In this document: positions 43,211 through 48,921 of the stretch, piece after piece
How positions within the stretch are numbered: position 1 is the stretch's first letter
Layout: the number at the start of each line of letters is the position of its first letter
Origin: a virus
Taxonomy: Duplodnaviria; Caudoviricetes
IMG/VR virus record: IMGVR_UViG_3300034272_002196
Coordinates: 1,901-65,900 of that record
Reading direction: 5' to 3' (one strand)
DNA length: 64,000 nucleotides
Position numbers and translations under genes: made by a program
The notes under the pieces: generated by a model
Databases searched by the model: none
What the model was told of the DNA's origin: nothing
The model's input: only the letters and a program-made list of their open reading frames with translations

Positions 43211-44983
43211 ATGTTTAAAATAAAAGCACTGTCAGTTAAAAATTTTATGAGTGTAGGTAATGCTACACAGGGTATCGACTTTGATCGTAACGACTTAACG
43301 CTGGTATTAGGTGAAAATTTAGACTTAGGCGGCGATGACAGTGGTGCTAGGAATGGCACCGGCAAAACTACTATTATCAATGCATTGAGTTACAGCTTAT
43401 TCGGCCAAGCGTTGACTAATATTAAAAAAGACAACCTGATTAATAAAACTAACAGCAAAAACATGTTAGTCACTGTGGACTTCGACGTCGAAGGTTGCCA
43501 TTATAGAATTGAGCGTGGTCGTAAACCAAATGTACTTAAGTTCTATATCGACGATGAAGAACTACAAACAAAAGACGACAATAGTCAAGGCGACAGTAGA
43601 GAGACTCAAGCAGAAATTGAAAGACTGTTAAACATGAGCCATGATATGTTCAGACATATTGTAGCCCTGAACACGTACACTGAGCCGTTTTTAAGTTTAA
43701 AAGCCAACGAACAACGAACAATTATTGAACAACTTTTAGGCATTACACTGTTAAGTGAAAAAGCTGAAGCATTAAAACAACAAAACAAAGATACTAAAGA
43801 TGCCATACAAAGCGAAGAATTTAGAATCAAAGCCGTGCAAGATGCCAATAAACGAATTCAAGATCAAATTGATGCATTAATTCGACGTCAGACTTTATGG
43901 AGTAAAAAACATGAGGACGATGTTGCTGCTCTACAAACTGCTTACGATCAACTGGCAGAATTAGATATAGAATCAGAATTGGATGCACACAAACGATTAT
44001 CTGATTATTCTTCTAAAGAGAAAATAATTAACGATTTAAAAGCATGGATTAAACGATGCGAACAAGACGAAGTAAGGGAAACCCGTGAAATTGAAAAGCT
44101 CAGAAATGAAATCCAAACGTTGGAGAATCATACTTGTCACTCGTGCGGGCAAGCGTTCCACGACTCCAAACAAGAAACCCTATTAGAAGAGAAAAAGAAA
44201 ACACTACAAGAATCTGCACTGCAGGCCCTTGCCACTAACACACAATACATGGAACACACTGATGCACTTACAGCATTGGGAGAACTAGGAACCAAGCCTA
44301 CAACTTTTTATAAAAATGAAAGCGATGCGTTCGAACATCGAAGTAGTATGGCCAGTGTATTAACTCAGTTAACTGCAAAGCAACAAGAAACTGATCCTTA
44401 TGCAGATCAAATTGTAGAAATGCGCGAACAAGCGTTACAGGAAATCAATTATGATATTCTTAATGGTCTCACACGAATTAAAGATCATCAAGATTTTCTA
44501 GTTAAACTATTAACTAATAAAGACAGTTTTATTCGTAAAAAGATTATTGATCAAAACTTAAATCACTTAAATGCAAGACTCAGTTATTACTTAGATAAAA
44601 TTGGATTACCGCACACTGTGAAATTCAACAATGATTTAACTGTTAGTATTGAAGAACTGGGTCGTGAATTAGATTTTGACAATCTCAGCAGAGGAGAGCG
44701 TAATCGATTAATTCTTTCTTTGTCTTGGTCTTTTAGAGACGTATGGGAAAGTTTGTATCAGCCTATTAATCTATTGTTTATCGACGAGCTAGTAGACAGT
44801 GGCATGGATGCCAGTGGGGTAGAAAATAGTTTGGCCATTTTAAAGAAAATGAGTAGAGAAAGTGATCGCAGTGTTTGGCTAGTCAGCCACAAGGACGAGT
44901 TAGCAGGACGAGTCAATAATATACTAACTGTTGTAAAAGAAAACGGTTTTACTAGTTATACAACTGATGTTGAAGTTATTTAA
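43211..44983 (+). CDS. gp46: Recombination ATPase, Rad50/SbcC-like
   Basis: Walker A GARNGTGKT, coiled coil with CHSC zinc hook, signature LSRGE, Walker B LFIDE, VSH. Confidence 0.93.
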   Translation: MFKIKALSVKNFMSVGNATQGIDFDRNDLTLVLGENLDLGGDDSGARNGTGKTTIINALSYSLFGQALTNIKKDNLINKTNSKNMLVTVDFDVEGCHYRIERGRKPNVLKFYIDDEELQTKDDNSQGDSRETQAEIERLLNMSHDMFRHIVALNTYTEPFLSLKANEQRTIIEQLLGITLLSEKAEALKQQNKDTKDAIQSEEFRIKAVQDANKRIQDQIDALIRRQTLWSKKHEDDVAALQTAYDQLAELDIESELDAHKRLSDYSSKEKIINDLKAWIKRCEQDEVRETREIEKLRNEIQTLENHTCHSCGQAFHDSKQETLLEEKKKTLQESALQALATNTQYMEHTDALTALGELGTKPTTFYKNESDAFEHRSSMASVLTQLTAKQQETDPYADQIVEMREQALQEINYDILNGLTRIKDHQDFLVKLLTNKDSFIRKKIIDQNLNHLNARLSYYLDKIGLPHTVKFNNDLTVSIEELGRELDFDNLSRGERNRLILSLSWSFRDVWESLYQPINLLFIDELVDSGMDASGVENSLAILKKMSRESDRSVWLVSHKDELAGRVNNILTVVKENGFTSYTTDVEVI

Positions 44984-45935
44984 CACCAACGAACTTCATA
45001 TAGAAATCAGCAGCAAGTGCATGTTAAAATGCCCTCGCTGCCCTAGGACTGAGCTAAAACCTGATGTTCTGAATCAGGAATTTACTTTAGAAGAATTTAA
45101 AACTGCTTTTCCGCCAAGTATATTAAACAGCGTTAAAAAGATAATTTTTTGCGGTGACATCGGCGATCCAATTTATGCCACCGAATTCTTAGAAATTGTT
45201 GAATATGTCAAAAAGTTTAAAATTCAGTTAGTCGTTGTTACCAATGGTAGCTATAAAAAAGATCCGTGGTGGGTAAAATTTGGTAGTCTACTAGATTATC
45301 ACGACGTGGTTCAATTTAGTATTGATGGGTGGGATAATGACAGTAATAACATGTATAGAATAAACAGTGATTACGACAGTATTATCAACGGCATTAAAGT
45401 TTTACGAGAAAATAGCAGTTGCACTATTAACTGGAGTTCTATATACTTTAACTTCAACGAAGATCATATGGATCTTATTAAAGCTCAAGCAACGAACGCA
45501 GGCGTAGATCAATGGCAGGCAGTAAGAAGTACAAAATTTGATGGAAGATACTCGATCAATGGTCAAGATCCGTTAAAACCTAAGAATTATGAAAATCAGA
45601 ATTTTGGCACTGTGTATGCAAAAAACATAACAAAAATATCTAATAGAAAAAAAGCCATTGAAATCAAATACTTTACTGATAATCATAGTTGGGCAAAATG
45701 CTTAAACTGGAAAAAAGAATTGTTTATTAATGTAGGGGGTTTAGTTTTTCCTTGCCCGTGGTTTAATAGTGGATATCAATTCAATGACTTTGTACAAAAA
45801 TATAAAACAAAATTAAATGTAAGGACAAGACCCTTGGACGAGATCTTAAATGACAATCTATGGGAAGAATTTATTGTGCGATTAGAAACTATGCCTTTGG
45901 AAATTTGTAAAATAAAGTGCAAAAATGATAGATAA
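44967..45935 (+). CDS. Radical SAM enzyme with C-terminal twitch/SPASM-like domain
   Basis: N-terminal CMLKCPRC, FCGDIGDP, TNG, FSIDG; C-terminal CLNW...PCPW...CKIKC. Confidence 0.9.
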   Translation: MLKLFNTNELHIEISSKCMLKCPRCPRTELKPDVLNQEFTLEEFKTAFPPSILNSVKKIIFCGDIGDPIYATEFLEIVEYVKKFKIQLVVVTNGSYKKDPWWVKFGSLLDYHDVVQFSIDGWDNDSNNMYRINSDYDSIINGIKVLRENSSCTINWSSIYFNFNEDHMDLIKAQATNAGVDQWQAVRSTKFDGRYSINGQDPLKPKNYENQNFGTVYAKNITKISNRKKAIEIKYFTDNHSWAKCLNWKKELFINVGGLVFPCPWFNSGYQFNDFVQKYKTKLNVRTRPLDEILNDNLWEEFIVRLETMPLEICKIKCKNDR

Positions 45936-47157
45936 AATATTTTGCACCGTGCCTTGGTATGAAGTGCATATTAACGCCGACGGCACTTATCATTCTTGCG
46001 GTGCTCAGCCCAATAGAATTAGCGGGACTCCTGACGCAAAAAAATATAATGTACATTCGATGACCATTGACGAATGGGTTGCCGGGCAGCATCAAGAATT
46101 TGCAAGGCATGGCAAACTAAATGGGGTTCGTGAACCTTTATGCGGCATGTGCTATCACGAAGAATCAATTGGGTCTGTTAGTAAGCGTGTCAGAGAAAAC
46201 CTCAGAAGTAATATCGAGCCTTTGCGTTTTTATGAAACGTTTGATAAAGATTATTTTCAAAGTTTAAAACCAAATATCAATAGCTATCATATAAGTCTGG
46301 GCAATGAATGTAATCTTGCTTGCAGAATTTGCGGGCCTACCGCCAGCAGTAAAATTGCTGTAGCGGAAATCAAAGCAGGAACTTATAGTGGGCCTGCCAG
46401 GATGAACTGGACCGAAGACGAATCTGCATGGAATCACGTAGTTTCAACTATTTGTAATACTCCAGATTTAAAATTTGTTCATTTGATAGGCGGTGAAACT
46501 TTATTAAATCCAAAATTTGAAAATCTAATAGATCAACTGCTCGAGGCAAATAAAACTGACATTTATCTAGGCTTTACTACCAATGGTACTATTTTTAATC
46601 AACAGTTAATGGAAAAGCTTAATGCATTCAGGCATGTAGACGTTGGCATTAGTATAGAATGTACAGGTCCGTTGAACGATATGATTAGGCAAGGCTCTCA
46701 CACTGAAGAAGTATTAGACAATATCGATTTATATTTAAAACATCGAAAAGAAGGCCATGTTTACATCACAGTCAGACCTGTTCCCAGCGCATTAAGTATA
46801 CACGAACTAGATGACTTGTATAAGTGGTGTGTAAGCAGAAAACTAGATGTAATGACTAATATTTTAACTAGGCCAGATTATCTGCAAATTGCACAACTGC
46901 CTCCCGACGTTAAAGAACGTTTAGTTAAACAATATAGTAAATGGGATTATAGCGAACCTGCTCCGGCGAACAGTGATCCCAGAGACCCAACTTGGTTTAA
47001 ACAACACATAGACAACGAAATAAAATCAATCATCACGGCACTATCACAACCAAACGATCCATCATTGACTCAAAAACTTTATCAAAAACTTTCATTATGG
47101 GGCTGGTTAGATCAACCAAATATAGCAAAATATTTTAAAACAAACTTTAAGGCATAA
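45925..47157 (+). CDS. Radical SAM enzyme, N-terminal twitch/SPASM-like domain
   Basis: CNLACRIC, IGGET, TTNG; N-terminal CTVPW...SCG...CGMC. Confidence 0.9.
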   Translation: MIDKIFCTVPWYEVHINADGTYHSCGAQPNRISGTPDAKKYNVHSMTIDEWVAGQHQEFARHGKLNGVREPLCGMCYHEESIGSVSKRVRENLRSNIEPLRFYETFDKDYFQSLKPNINSYHISLGNECNLACRICGPTASSKIAVAEIKAGTYSGPARMNWTEDESAWNHVVSTICNTPDLKFVHLIGGETLLNPKFENLIDQLLEANKTDIYLGFTTNGTIFNQQLMEKLNAFRHVDVGISIECTGPLNDMIRQGSHTEEVLDNIDLYLKHRKEGHVYITVRPVPSALSIHELDDLYKWCVSRKLDVMTNILTRPDYLQIAQLPPDVKERLVKQYSKWDYSEPAPANSDPRDPTWFKQHIDNEIKSIITALSQPNDPSLTQKLYQKLSLWGWLDQPNIAKYFKTNFKA

Positions 47158-47169
47158 CTAGTATGTACA

Positions 47170-47604
47170 ATGACATGGCTTTATCAAACAACTCTAATAG
47201 AATCTTTACCCGAAGATTGTGTCGGATTCGTTTACATTATCACAAATAACATCACAGACAAAAAATACATAGGTAAAAAACTAGCTAAATTCGCAAAAAC
47301 TACTCAAAAAACAATAAAATTAAAAAACGGCACAAAAAAGAAAAAGAAAATTCGCTCAAAAGTCGACAGTGACTGGAGAGATTATTATGGCTCAAGTCCT
47401 GAATTAAAAAAAGACATAGAACAATTAGGCGCTGACAATTTTACTAGAGAAATACTTTACTATTGTAAGTCAAAAGCAGAATGTAGTTATGTCGAGGCCC
47501 GAGAACAATTTACCAGGCGTGTATTAGAATCAGATGATTATTATAACGGCATAATTAATTGCCGTATCCATGGCTCCCATATAAAAAACAAACTAAGCAT
47601 TTAA
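47170..47604 (+). CDS. Stand-alone GIY-YIG family nuclease
   Basis: GFVYIITN...KKYIGKK, YYGSS, FTREIL...E...YYN; Lys-rich insert KLKNGTKKKKKIRSK; no C-terminal DNA-binding repeats. Confidence 0.8.
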   Translation: MTWLYQTTLIESLPEDCVGFVYIITNNITDKKYIGKKLAKFAKTTQKTIKLKNGTKKKKKIRSKVDSDWRDYYGSSPELKKDIEQLGADNFTREILYYCKSKAECSYVEAREQFTRRVLESDDYYNGIINCRIHGSHIKNKLSI

Positions 47605-47960
47605 GACTCGCACAGGTCAATTTCATGTGCCCTATACCTGGATCTCGGATCGCAGGGATGGAAGACTCACCGTGCTAGTGAGCACTCAACCACTGCCCGA
47701 AAGGATGAAGATTGCCAATGCCGCAATTTGGTTGTTTGAATAGGAATAAAGGCTGAAAAGACGTCACAGTGATGTGACAAGGTTTATATGTATGTTAGCG
47801 TATAGATATAAACCTGCCGTTGGGATAAGACACAACTCGAGGTACAGGCCAACCGCCTCTGTAATGTTGTAACGCTAAGTGACTGTGCTACTCGGATGAA
47901 GCTCATTCATTTCTTTGCCCTGTGCGGGCAAAGTGTGACCGATTAATCTGGATGAAACTT
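47605..47960 (+). ncRNA. Candidate large structured non-coding RNA
   Basis: ORF-free and GC-richer than its surroundings. Nested helices: CAACCA/TGGTTG, AGGTTTATAT/ATATAAACCT, GTCACA/TGTGAC, CTTTGCCC/GGGCAAAG, GGTCA/TGACC. Two loop-mediated pseudoknots. Strand inferred from G-U pairs, a GAAA tetraloop and the upstream gene. Confidence 0.7.
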
Positions 47961-47963
47961 ATA

Positions 47964-48032
47964 TCGCTTCGCTCTAAAAAAACAATATATCACTGAGCGA
48001 CAGCGAAAGTGATAGATGTGCTACGCACATCT
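47964..48032. repeat. Cluster of short inverted repeats at the convergence point of transcription
   Basis: TCGCTTCGCTC/GAGCGA(C)AGCGA, TATCACT/AGTGATA, AGATGTGC-TAC-GCACATCT. Confidence 0.6.
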
Positions 48033-48674
48033 TAAAAGAATAATAATTTCTTCTTTGCTTTAGCAGTCAATATTGCTTGTATATGTTCTGGTGATTTGGG
48101 TTTACGCATTTTAGCTTTAGTTTCTTCTGATTTGGGTTTACGCATTTTAGCTTTAGTTTCTTCTGAACGAGTACCATTCGATTTACCAGTAAAATATTCT
48201 GATAATTTTTGTTTATGACTTTCTGACTTTTGTTTGCCTTTATGTGTATTTGATATTTTTTTAGCTATTTCTAATTTCTGTTCGTCAGTATAGTTTGTTG
48301 GCTTTTTTCCTTTTTGTGCTTGGCTCATTCGTAATTTTTGTTCAAGTGTTCTTTTTTTACCTATATTTTTAGAAATTCTTTTTTTGTATTGTTTCCTGAG
48401 TATCTATCCTTCCAGATACACCTTCACCGCCGTCAGTCATATTGCGTAAGATTCCTGTACCAAGATCTTTGCGACCGTACTGTGCTATCAGTTTGCATTC
48501 CAAATTGAAAGCTTCGTTTTCGTTTAAATTATCTTGTATGATTTGTATCAAGGATGAATCTTTTGGTTTAGGTATAGATCTACCATTCAGATAAGCACGG
48601 CGTCCTTTACCTTTACCAATATAATATGGTGTTTTGTCTTCTCTAAGATACGCATAAACATAAAAAATATTCAT
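48032..48674 (-). pseudogene. GIY-YIG-like/NUMOD3 homing endonuclease split by a +1 frameshift
   Basis: From ATG 48674: FYVYAY...YYIGKG...E..LI..YGR...NMTDGGEG. The NUMOD3-like repeats (SEETKAKM, KSESHKQKLS) are in another frame; removing one A from the A7 run at 48379-48385 restores a ~213-aa protein. Confidence 0.75.
48092..48163. repeat. Perfect 36-bp tandem duplication (2 copies) in the NUMOD3 region
   Basis: TGATTTGGGTTTACGCATTTTAGCTTTAGTTTCTTC x2, encoding EETKAKMRKPKS. Confidence 0.9.
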
Positions 48675-48702
48675 AAAAATATTTATGTGGATTGCCGTTT
48701 TT

Positions 48703-48921
48703 TTAGAAAAAGGGCAGCCCTGTTTCCTTTGTGGTATTAATATTATCTTCGACAATACTATTAATAATTTCTCTTTCTTGAAAACTTATTTCCATAGCTT
48801 CGCTGTAAGTTATTCCACCTCTCATGTGCCAACAAATTTTTAATATATTCTTTTTAAGGGCTTTTGAATCCTTGTCGAAATCATTGATCATTTCAACAAT
48901 TGATTCATTGTCTAAACTCAA
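48703..48921 (-). CDS. Small baseplate hub/tail assembly protein (gp51-like), possibly a frameshift extension of the gp26-like protein
   Basis: [21 protein letters not shown]; lies in the -1 frame directly after the gp26-like gene; weak TTG start. Confidence 0.6.

Follow-up and report, generated by a model that had tools for sequence, protein, structure and literature searches.

An RNA three times the size of the Polynucleobacter-1 motif has three pseudoknots and two loops with a matched variable word

Rfam has listed Polynucleobacter-1 (RF01718) since 2010, as a motif of 141 nt to which no function is assigned. The original report places it in fresh water and in Burkholderiales and lists it as probably cis-regulatory, presumed to lie in a 5′ UTR (Weinberg et al. 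2010, PMC2864571). A full-text literature search for Polynucleobacter-1 turned up this original paper only (PMC2864571). The 5′ UTR placement is a guess based on context and is no defining property of the RF01718 model.

Large structured RNAs have also been described beside DNA-processing enzymes. The bridge RNA (seekRNA) of IS110/IS1111 elements is a structured RNA beside a DNA recombinase, and the RNA reported here, which has two loops with mutually matched variable bases, might work like it. The DEDD/Tnp recombinase of these elements is absent from our locus. Moreover, the bridge RNA carries separate target and donor guides, whereas our RNA displays the same word in both loops, has no enriched DNA target nearby and is about 2.5 times longer. 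The HEARO/omega RNA of IscB and the TnpB RNA are likewise large structured RNAs adjoining a small nuclease, and TnpB RNA, like the RNA here, has its start within the 3′-terminal part of the preceding ORF. IscB and TnpB combine a RuvC-type nuclease with a terminal guide, whereas here the nuclease is of GIY-YIG type, both RNA ends are conserved structure, transposon ends are absent, and nuclease and RNA are separable. GOLLD and ROOL, which phages often carry, resemble our RNA as large many-helix RNAs of phage DNA and lake samples to which no function is assigned (PMC12286853). Neither has an Rfam match here, and the RNA here is smaller. Tyrosine recombinases of the FimB/FimE and Xer types come into view since a bacterial neighbour of the RNA aligns to their catalytic domain and has the catalytic residues. 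To our knowledge these recombinases have no RNA partner, and those of FimB/FimE size function without RNA.

The RNA lies in a window of 64,000 nucleotides from a Caudoviricetes virus, which is the whole stretch of DNA analyzed. It has the same hairpins and three-way junction as Polynucleobacter-1 within 47605-47737 and shares its habitat of fresh water and Burkholderiales. Compared with the catalogued 141 nt, the RNA here measures ~435-480 nt and includes ~300 more conserved, co-varying nucleotides. The presumed 5′ UTR setting does not apply in the window, where the RNA is 3′ of an ORF and its end hairpin faces a convergent gene. The features of the locus are as follows.

47170-47604, + strand: 144-aa stand-alone GIY-YIG protein, SegE-type (PF19835, E 2e-33, residues 3-129; phrog_447, E 6e-39)
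47596-47599, + strand: 5′ strand of pseudoknot PKa, located in the final codons of the preceding ORF; partner strand in the P3 loop, 47673-47676 (90.9% paired)
47605-47737, + strand: 5′ domain, equal to RF01718, with helices P1-P6 (95-100% paired)
47610-14/47626-30, + strand: P1, 5′ domain helix
47637-56, + strand: P2, 5′ domain helix
47666-70/47678-82, + strand: P3, 5′ domain helix
47687-92/47729-34, + strand: P4, 5′ domain helix
47697-98/47703-04, + strand: P5, 5′ domain helix
47710-15/47723-28, + strand: P6, 5′ domain helix
47763-68/47773-78, + strand: P7 hairpin (87% paired)
47781-89/47806-14, + strand: P8, long hairpin (94% paired, compensatory change at 12 of 12 pairs)
47795-47801 with 47872-47878, + strand: pseudoknot PKb, formed by the P8 apical loop (96% paired, 7 of 7 pairs compensatory)
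47819-23 with 47849-53, + strand: pseudoknot PKc, GUUGG with CCAAC in the P10 loop (97.2% paired; 3 of 5 pairs compensatory, UA/CG and GC/AU)
47832-36/47866-70, + strand: P9, enclosing P10 (96% paired)
47839-42/47856-59, + strand: P10 (97% paired)
47890-47900, + strand: twin site A, in the 3′ part of a hairpin loop; the variable 7-mer, here GGAUGAA (47894-900), comes after an invariant ACUC
47913-47933, + strand: P11 hairpin between the twin sites, CUUUGCCC / GGGCAAAG (helices 93% and 86% paired; CG/UG/UA variants)
47946-47956, + strand: twin site B, in which an invariant AUCU precedes the 7-mer of site A, GGAUGAA (47950-56)
47988-48014, + strand: P13 hairpin, UAUCACU / AGUGAUA, with a conserved 13-nt apex GAGCGACAGCGAA (apex in 53 of 58 sequences)
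48015-48031, + strand: terminal hairpin GAUGUGC-UAC-GCACAUC followed by UU (7 pairs, 6 compensatory, in 36 sequences)

A conservation profile over 55 relatives delimits the structured RNA to 47596-48031 on the + strand. Its ~435 nt run from the last codons of the ORF (47596) to the end of the terminal hairpin (48031), exceeding the ~350 nt proposed in an earlier, sequence-only reading of the locus. That reading had also named no known family, yet RF01718 matches 47605-47737 over the full model (positions 1-141) with 109.9 bits and an E value of 5.9e-23, against a curated gathering score of 37 bits. The Rfam motif is the 5′ third only of a larger RNA. The absence of a tmRNA, RNase P or group I/II intron core, also asserted earlier, is confirmed by the lack of a match to these families at E up to 10 over 47100-48400. 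Self-cleaving ribozyme families gave no match at the same threshold over the same interval, and ARAGORN detected no tRNA or tmRNA in the window.

The whole element was found again in 76 viral and 112 metagenome loci. A profile HMM of 47596-48031 aligns over its full length in loci L124, L125 and L131, as well as in the majority of the 112 metagenome loci. The RNA is mainly phage-borne, mostly on contigs of T4-like phages; blastn against 50,697 phage records returned no match, which at this sensitivity places the family outside cultured phages. The + strand does not encode protein: in 134 relatives, each of its reading frames is interrupted by ~7.5 stops per 120 codons. Another 43 loci from a first pattern scan were dropped, being devoid of wider similarity and mostly copies of one prophage coding sequence.

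The fold model contains 15 helices, 80 pairs and three pseudoknots and was tested on 58 aligned sequences. The model pairs are formed in 95.8% of cells, compared with 81.5% in shuffles and at most 42% with slid partners, and none of 500 shuffles reaches the observed values. Compensatory changes are present at 52 of the 80 pairs. The covariation is strand-specific: G-U pairs are numerous on the + strand and A-C pairs are few. The single-sequence fold is marginal, with a z score of -1.76 on the + strand, where 5 of 100 shuffles fold equally well, and -1.79 on the minus strand; single-sequence thermodynamics alone is uninformative. Nevertheless, the stretch is taken as more than chance because the comparative data are strong. 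It is a real conserved structured RNA on the strand of the nuclease gene.

Within the RF01718 domain, 18 pairs are changed on both sides in relatives. PKa varies in a compensatory manner across sequences (AGCA/UGCU, ACGG/CCGU, GCAG/CUGC, GGUAC/GUACC and others), and its 5′ strand is retained even when another gene lies upstream. A variable site 3′ of P10 receives hairpin inserts in relatives. The P13 apex is set on many different complementary stems and its inner pairs co-vary (CG 29, UA 5); we read it as tandem G-A pairs, two Watson-Crick pairs and a GNNA loop. For the outer P13 stem, a per-sequence list was used, as column counting is upset by alignment shifts. The terminal hairpin, which abuts the stop codon of a convergent minus-strand ORF (48032-48328), likely forms the 3′ end of the RNA. 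GAAA, GNNA and UUCG/UACG loops, all typical of RNA, occur in the element.

Much of the structure drawn by eye in the sequence-only reading agrees with the alignment. The strings it had named are located correctly (GGTCA at 47615, TGACC at 47936, GCACA at 47610, the TGTGC loop at 47921, CTTTGCCC at 47913 with GGGCAAAG at 47926, CCTAT at 47631 with ATAGG at 47740, and TTAGCGT at 47795 with ACGCTAA at 47872), and GGATGAA does occur three times, at 47703, 47894 and 47950. The CTCAC/GTGAG, CAACCA/TGGTTG, CC-GAAA-GG, ATTGC and GTCACA/TGTGAC helices are supported, as are the 10-bp stem, ACAAC/GTTGT, GAGG/CCTC and the CTTTGCCC hairpin. Its second pseudoknot, TTAGCGT with ACGCTAA, is PKb, in which all seven pairs show compensatory change. 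By contrast, its first pseudoknot, between GCACA and the TGTGC loop, is paired in 62% of cells, and GCACA instead pairs locally with 47626-30 in 100%. The proposed closing helix GGTCA/TGACC is 76% paired without covariation, and CCTAT/ATAGG is 42% paired. Jointly, these three helices pair in 60.0% of cells against 59.1% in shuffles. PKc is absent from the earlier reading.

The two twin sites carry a variable word that changes in lock step. The 7-mer is the same at sites A and B in 129 of 131 unique phage-type elements, across 12 different words. Mutual information between columns is limited to the twin; for the first word position, the information shared with non-twin columns does not exceed 0.15 bit. 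A variable guide-like segment, for which the earlier reading advised looking, exists and occurs twice. The twins are spaced 49-62 bp apart, and the segment between them is ~56 nt. Identity of the words could stem from a process at the DNA level. By eye, each word lies between imperfect inverted repeats, like a core recombination site.

A strict complement of the twin word is missing from the element and from the 200 nt that flank it on each side. Flanking DNA, comprising 985,553 bases from 129 loci and searched on both strands, is not enriched in a locus's own word relative to the words of other loci (0.91 versus 0.93 per 10 kb on the + strand; 0.77 versus 0.64 on the minus strand). At 11 bacterial loci, the own word occurs 1.18 versus 0.79 times per locus, which we judged not to be enrichment. 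The invariant GUUGUUU at 47731 has a G-U-rich match to the word in 28 of 53 sequences, without co-variation. Many minimum-energy folds contain a helix that joins site A to the sequence flanking site B; it was rejected on inspection because AG, GC and GA words break the pairing. A reading of the words as a sense codon plus a UGA or UAA stop, as in translational bypass or tRNA binding, was likewise rejected. The phage words fit such an NNA-URA pattern, but the bacterial AUCAAAAG, AGCGAAAG and others do not, and no ORF leads into site A.

In the window, the phage neighbours of the RNA are the GIY-YIG gene, a radical SAM gene and a baseplate protein gene. The GIY-YIG gene is the last of a + strand operon that begins at about 39789, and it ends one base before the ORF-free stretch, as noted earlier. 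The 144-aa protein scores below the TIGR01453 cut-off. Its nuclease domain occupies residues 3-129, the C-terminal modules (NUMOD, HTH) are absent, and the protein has no DNA-binding domain. Homologs of 41-59% identity are found in cultured Kyanoviridae as single-copy, syntenic genes downstream of nrdAB, with no patchy mobile distribution.

The GIY-YIG gene is the usual, not an obligate, neighbour of the RNA. Of 61 viral loci, 58 have it upstream of the RNA in the same orientation, with direct adjacency in 55; in the three viral loci L054, L105 and L050, one or two genes lie between. Among the 112 metagenome loci, the gene is within 60 nt of the RNA in 77 and 62-971 nt away in 16. Two outcomes that the sequence-only reading had itself named as refuting are observed: a known Rfam family matches, and nuclease gene and RNA each occur without the other, which speaks against their pairing but not against the RNA. 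A homolog of 72% identity in L127 is followed directly by another gene and has no RNA, and three complete cultured phage genomes with a GIY-YIG homolog contain no RF01718 match. Conversely, a different ORF precedes the RNA in L119, and no GIY-YIG gene was found upstream in nine metagenome loci with at least 500 nt of flank. In some other phages, the RNA follows a PD-(D/E)XK nuclease or is in unrelated settings. The basic insert in the protein, noted earlier, is not tied to the RNA: it has a short form in the RNA-linked homologs of L082 and L046. Nuclease residues do not co-vary with word positions above the background of 71 control columns.

Co-transcription of nuclease gene and RNA, suggested in the same reading, is probable. 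The two are on the same strand, and no sigma-70-like promoter was found on the + strand. One short metatranscriptome contig is identical over 47430-47655, bridging ORF and RNA, and a second short one covers 47836-47974; RNA libraries can hold DNA, and this part of the evidence is weak. Stretches of 46800-48500 that such contigs leave uncovered carry no weight, as the comparison was with contigs alone.

The RNA also resides in bacterial chromosomes. Thirteen of 121 genomes of one genus, with Polynucleobacter-type chromosomes, score above the RF01718 cut-off, and the copies show the same RNA architecture, including the same P13 apex. Their twin words are again matched but differ from those of phages, and one genome contains two distinct words. 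All 14 chromosomal loci have a divergent DUF6641 gene upstream, and all 12 of 12 have a tyrosine recombinase of 189 aa (range 188-198) downstream on the same strand. The gap between RNA and recombinase is 0.3-1.25 kb and sometimes includes a further ORF. The recombinase matches PF00589 with E values of 1e-25 to 1e-29, and alignment to 4a8e identifies the catalytic R, HxxR, H/W and Y residues. It consists of the catalytic domain only, aligning to residues ~99-275 of Xer proteins without the N-terminal core-binding domain, and scores below all NCBIfam cut-offs. The 65.9-kb phage record encodes no tyrosine recombinase. Next to the bacterial module are arrays in which accessory genes stand singly, with fragments resembling the tRNA-Phe 3′ end between them. 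Beyond the recombinase, a possible third site A is seen in only two of five loci (L264 and L266), barely above shuffles.

With moderate confidence, we regard the stretch as a gene in its own right, whose product would be a large multi-pseudoknotted non-coding RNA, a portable module that likely acts in trans via its twin loops. The data establish the extent, strand, fold, family, distribution and gene neighbourhoods of the RNA and the lock-step words, whereas transcription, RNA ends, action in trans, loop recognition and any link to the enzymes are inferred. In this T4-like freshwater phage, the RNA would be transcribed by read-through from an early/middle operon ending in the GIY-YIG gene, and the transcript would stop at the RNA's own terminal hairpin. 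The RNA would be a portable module rather than a dedicated subunit of the GIY-YIG protein, because the PKa strand is kept under any upstream gene and because RNA and GIY-YIG gene occur apart. In trans, a rigid conserved scaffold would show two loops with one fast-changing word, and these loops may recognize a partner sequence that is present twice or, if the partner is a dimer, its two halves. Such recognition would probably serve DNA transactions by the neighbouring enzymes. The association with these enzymes may also be mere shared location in DNA-metabolism or mobile regions.

An alternative that assigns the RNA to the GIY-YIG protein, as an RNA-guided or RNA-regulated nuclease particle in which the protein catalyzes and the RNA chooses the target, appears unlikely. 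It would explain the same-strand adjacency in 55 of 61 viral loci and the distance of at most 60 nt in 77 of 112 metagenome loci, the start of the structure in the last ORF codons, the missing DNA-binding domain, the two variable loops and the RNA-library contig bridging ORF and RNA. However, the 72%-identical homolog and the three cultured phage homologs dispense with the RNA, genes intervene in L054, L105 and L050, L119 has another ORF, nine metagenome loci lack the gene upstream and 16 have it 62-971 nt off. The recombinase replaces GIY-YIG as the neighbour in bacteria, and no protein column co-varies with the words above the 71 control columns. The recombinase brings up a second possibility, that the loops pair with two DNA sites sharing the word and hand them to the neighbouring recombinase or nuclease in the manner of a bridge RNA. 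Recombining sites necessarily have a common overlap, which would be matched by identical words with differing invariant flanks (ACUC and AUCU). The bacterial recombinase has kept its catalytic R, HxxR, H and Y without an N-terminal DNA-binding domain and is encoded downstream of the RNA on the same strand; two modules in one genome have different words, and the module borders accessory-gene arrays with tRNA-Phe 3′-end-like fragments. On the other hand, target sites were not found and the flanks show no excess of the own word, possible third copies of site A are confined to two of five loci and barely exceed shuffles, the phage record is without a recombinase, a guide is usually longer than words of 7-8 nt, and recombinases of FimB/FimE size work without RNA. 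We therefore consider it doubtful that the extended Polynucleobacter-1 is a guide or bridge RNA whose shared programmable word directs a domain-poor adjacent enzyme, be it the recombinase or the GIY-YIG or PD-(D/E)XK nuclease. Should a minimal tyrosine recombinase or a small nuclease prove to be programmed by the RNA, this would constitute a new RNA-guided DNA system, and RNA-programmed site-specific recombination or cleavage would exist outside the CRISPR, OMEGA and IS110 lineages.

Large ribozymes typically have the size, the pseudoknots, the GNRA-type loops and the invariant single strands seen here. The twin sites, which share a word and have similar flanks, might then be equivalent processing sites that release the ~56-nt segment. 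Such self-processing seems improbable, given that group I, group II, RNase P and self-cleaving families yield no match at E up to 10 and that the element has no internal guide complementary to the twin sites; a 47894-47950 joint is not seen in RNA-library contigs, but these drop rare forms and its absence proves nothing. A role in cis, as a leader or attenuator of the downstream gene or a 3′ stabilizer or terminator of the upstream operon, is quite unlikely in our assessment. The motif's table entry reads probably cis-regulatory (PMC2864571). The RNA precedes the recombinase gene in bacteria and ends in a terminator-like hairpin. However, the downstream genes in phages vary and are often on the opposite strand, and in bacteria 0.3-1.25 kb, sometimes with an ORF, separates RNA and recombinase. 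Some phage downstream genes are preceded by what we take to be a late-promoter-like sequence, a further point against action in cis. The size of 435 nt, the three pseudoknots and the lock-step words would also be left unexplained. Lastly, the twins could act as DNA, as recombination or protein-binding sites, with part of the structure arising from folding of single-stranded DNA. The imperfect inverted repeats seen by eye around the words and the adjoining tyrosine recombinase in bacteria fit this explanation, but it is very improbable in view of the strand-specific covariation with many G-U and few A-C pairs, the RNA-typical UUCG and GNRA loops, the spacing of only 49-62 bp and the retention of the twins by phages without a recombinase in the available DNA.

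For Polynucleobacter-1, the analysis changes several points. The motif forms a single domain within an RNA of three times its size that contains at least three pseudoknots. This RNA is mainly a phage RNA and accompanies DNA-cutting or DNA-joining enzymes of three unrelated folds. Should it not programme these enzymes, it would still be among the few large complex bacterial or phage RNAs without a known role. The short word in its two loops changes often and always in both together, and these word-matched loops provide a direct experimental handle.

The sequence directly 3′ of the GIY-YIG gene contains a well-supported RNA gene of about 435 nt, whose 5′ domain belongs with good support to the Rfam family RF01718 (Polynucleobacter-1). 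The family model matches 47605–47737 on the + strand over its full length, scoring 109.9 bits against a cut-off of 37, and is the sole Rfam match in the whole window at gathering thresholds. A permissive scan of 47100–48400 adds only chance-level matches (E 0.76–5.9), none of them to an intron, RNase P or ribozyme family, and ARAGORN finds no tRNA or tmRNA. The sequence-only reading, whose cited strings are all present where it placed them, had assigned the RNA to no known family. The RF01718 match makes this wrong for the first 133 nt. In full-text literature, the names Polynucleobacter-1 and RF01718 were found only in a 2010 survey (PMC2864571), which lists the motif in a table and whose supplement may describe more of the element.

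The element extends beyond both the Rfam model and the stretch first delimited. When relatives are aligned with flanks of 200 nt, conserved sequence begins inside the end of the ORF and continues to about 48040. A scan of viral contigs for the 5′-domain pattern returned at least 119 stretches, of which 76 match the 361-nt query from the window, mostly over near-full length; the short matches that were checked end where the locus ends. The remaining 43, among the matches listed, have the pattern in common and nothing more, and were not accepted as family members. A second scan, with a 3′-domain pattern, returned 120 metagenome stretches, 112 of them containing the element. Stop codons occur at about 7.5 per 120 codons in each of the three + strand frames (134 relatives). 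The single-sequence fold energy is unremarkable (z = −1.76; minus strand −1.79), and blastn of 50,697 deposited phage records gave no match to the RNA.

An alignment of 57 relatives and the window was built from 60 distinct near-full matches among those listed, omitting three clipped by locus ends. The structure model written on it comprises 80 pairs in 15 helices, with registers picked from column statistics. Standard pairs fill 95.8% of 4,623 cells, compared with 81.5% in column shuffles and at most 42% when partners are slid by 1–3 columns, a control that is somewhat flattering because this alignment also served to choose the registers. Both sides change at 52 of the 80 pairs, and none of 500 shuffles reaches any of five measures. 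Register choice does not account for the size of the effect or for the many pair types per position. G-U pairs are common and A-C pairs scarce when the + strand is read, which, together with GAAA, GNNA and UUCG loops, points to an RNA on that strand. The model contains the Rfam helices, the local hairpins of the sequence-only reading and three pseudoknots; three further features lie beyond the 3′ end of that reading.

Pseudoknots and 3′ features of the RNA
47596–47599 with 47673–47676, +: PKa, pairing four bases within the final codons of the ORF with the P3 loop; many compensatory variants
PKb, the second pseudoknot of the sequence-only reading: 7/7 pairs compensated
47819–47823 with 47849–47853, +: PKc, new relative to the earlier fold
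3′ of the earlier end: small hairpin, capped by UUCG or UACG in most relatives
47988–48014: hairpin with a conserved 13-nt apex, GAGCGNNAGCGAA, in 53/58 sequences, on stems of many different sequences
48015–48031: terminal hairpin, 6/7 pairs compensated (36 of 58 sequences used)

PKb is thus borne out, and the fold as a whole differs in part from the one first drawn, a conclusion that is well supported. Three pairings proposed there (GCACA with a TGTGC loop, GGTCA/TGACC and CCTAT/ATAGG) are jointly paired in 60.0% of cells versus 59.1% in shuffles, and show no covariation. GCACA instead pairs locally as Rfam helix P1, which is 100% paired.

Several relatives vary this architecture. Hairpin inserts of 4 to ~50 nt occur at one point of the P9 loop in six loci (L089, L086, L049, L055, L119, and L023), at alignment columns 325–380, after window position 47864, and L101 and L032 carry an additional hairpin after 47823. 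In seven loci (L160, L175, L188, L192, L195, L241, and L247), the first 85–95 positions lack a profile match and the GIY-YIG gene ends 115–135 nt upstream; this subgroup probably has a divergent 5′ region. In the subclade of the window, 47964–47974, which makes the small UUCG hairpin in other clades, is instead complementary to 47995–48006, the conserved apex and loop of the next hairpin, possibly forming a fourth pseudoknot or an alternative fold.

Two sites in the RNA share one variable 7-mer, or word: site A (ACUC plus the word, 47890–47900) and site B (AUCU plus the word, 47946–47956). The repeat of GGATGAA had been noted before and is real; only the copies at 47894–47900 and 47950–47956 are special, and the one at 47703 is not involved. 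The words after the invariant ACUC and AUCU are identical in 129 of 131 unique full-length elements, with 12 words in use, and the preceding base tends to agree as well (102/131). The first word position is G or A, with an entropy of 0.98 bit; its mutual information is 0.86–0.98 bit with the twin position and no more than 0.15 bit with every other column. Flips of this position are therefore frequent and not linked to other parts of the RNA, but they occur at both sites. By eye, site A lies on the 3′ side of a hairpin loop whose closing stems vary in sequence, and site B lies between two hairpins. No complement of the word is found in the element or its flanks, and surrounding DNA is not enriched in a locus's own word relative to the words of other loci.

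The genes adjoining the RNA in the window are as follows.

47170–47604, +: GIY-YIG protein, 144 aa, with a SegE-type domain (PF19835, E 2e-33, residues 3–129); PHROG 447
within 48032–48755, minus: GIY-YIG-like N-terminal part, 128 aa (phrog_15526 and phrog_314)
within 48032–48755, minus: part with NUMOD3 and an internal tandem repeat, 98 aa

Taken together, the two neighbouring minus-strand ORFs resemble a free-standing homing endonuclease of the I-TevI type that has been split in two. The pair is inserted between the terminal hairpin and a small gene that comes immediately after the RNA in relatives (e.g. L099). Immediately 5′ of the GIY-YIG gene, two radical SAM proteins, of which one has a SPASM domain, are encoded at 44967–47157 (+), after gp47- and gp46-like genes.

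The sequence-only reading paired the nuclease with the RNA, and the two are adjacent in most loci. Among the matches listed, 58 of 61 viral loci have a GIY-YIG homolog on the same strand upstream of the RNA, and two of the 61 have too little upstream DNA to judge. In 55 of the 58 the homolog ends between 29 nt before and 5 nt after the RNA start. One or two genes (0.8–1.8 kb) intervene in L054, L105, and L050, and another ORF precedes the RNA in L119; the PKa strand is retained regardless of the upstream gene. Of the 112 metagenome loci with the element, 77 have a homolog ending no more than 60 nt from the RNA and 16 have it 62–971 nt off, while in nine with at least 500 nt upstream none is found; the other 10 are cut. 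Two of the nine have a PD-(D/E)XK endonuclease (PF24608, E 2e-24) in the same post-gp46 slot, four have a metallophosphoesterase 38–47 nt 3′ of the RNA, and the others have unrelated small genes as neighbours.

The nuclease also occurs alone. Its family has matches in 496 records; in cultured Kyanoviridae a member 41–52% identical to the window protein is single-copy downstream of nrdAB, and three complete genomes carrying it lack an RF01718 match. Another homolog, 72% identical and located on a MAG contig, has a different gene directly after it, in a genome also lacking a match. The basic insert to which attention had been drawn exceeds that of cultured homologs by six residues, but two RNA-linked proteins have the short form, so it is not tied to the RNA. 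Across 112 aligned nuclease sequences, no protein column carries more information on the word than on 71 control RNA columns. Because each partner occurs without the other and the protein does not covary with the word above control level, the pairing is frequent, not obligate. In L128, the place of this RNA after a 70%-identical homolog is taken by a different, G+C-rich stretch (1455–1589), which reaches the contig end and may be another structured element.

The RNA is also present in bacterial chromosomes. In a sample of 121 genomes drawn from the genus to which two MAGs titled Polynucleobacter belong, 13 have RF01718 above cut-off, many matches lying on ~2 Mb contigs; 14 control genomes have none. 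A modular distribution over freshwater (some marine) T4-like phage contigs and Polynucleobacter-type chromosomes is well supported. Chromosomal copies (~480 nt in total) have the 5′ domain, a diverged middle, the same 13-nt apex and a terminal hairpin. Their twin sites are arranged alike with other words (AUCAAAAG, AGCGAAAG, AGAGAAAG, AACAAAAG, and GGAGAAAG), identical in 7 of 12 loci and differing at one to three positions in the remainder. A tyrosine recombinase of 188–198 aa lies 0.3–1.25 kb 3′ of the RNA on the same strand in 12/12 loci with enough DNA; it aligns with Xer proteins over their catalytic half only and retains R, HxxR, H, and Y. A DUF6641 gene, on which nothing was found in full-text literature, diverges upstream of the RNA in 14/14 loci. 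Both genes are absent from the window's own 65.9-kb record (estimated 19% complete). One genome holds two RNA modules 18 kb apart, with different words.

Unrelated genes on one strand form an array beside the RNA–recombinase module in L265 (9400–18001), L266, and other chromosomal loci. At one locus, single genes for OmpA, a methyltransferase, GNAT, carbonic anhydrase, DUF6803, and DinB follow DUF6641, and the repeats between them combine a terminator hairpin with a fragment resembling the 3′ end of tRNA-Phe. Fragments of this kind are present on the DUF6641 side in 7/11 loci. The arrangement suggests serial site-specific insertion, or a cassette array.

The RNA is inferred to act in trans, with the twin loops as its recognition surface. 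Its recurring neighbours are nucleases of the GIY-YIG and PD-(D/E)XK types and a tyrosine recombinase without its DNA-binding half. Combined with two loops sharing one word, these neighbours make selection or bridging of DNA sites by the RNA the most interesting reading. We consider this reading improbable, since no target was found and gene settings of this sort are frequent in mobile and DNA-metabolism regions. A dedicated GIY-YIG–RNA particle, which the frequent adjacency would fit, is less likely still, the pairing not being obligate. The element may otherwise be a ribozyme, a cis-regulatory RNA or a feature acting at the DNA level. No RNA partner for tyrosine recombinases was found in titles and the opening parts of abstracts among the matches listed, and the relevant terms are absent from a recent preprint on noncoding families.

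The + strand of 47000–48400 contains no sigma-70-like site. Two metatranscriptomes among public runs hold parts of the stretch, as a 226-nt contig identical over 47430–47655, crossing the stop codon, and a 139-nt contig identical over 47836–47974; as these are contigs only, from runs found using the stretch and libraries that may contain DNA, they hint weakly at read-through transcription from the ORF into the RNA. In relatives (e.g. L077, L023, and L080), AUAAAUA-type sequences, which we take to resemble T4 late promoters, stand right after the terminal hairpin, ahead of co-oriented low-complexity genes.
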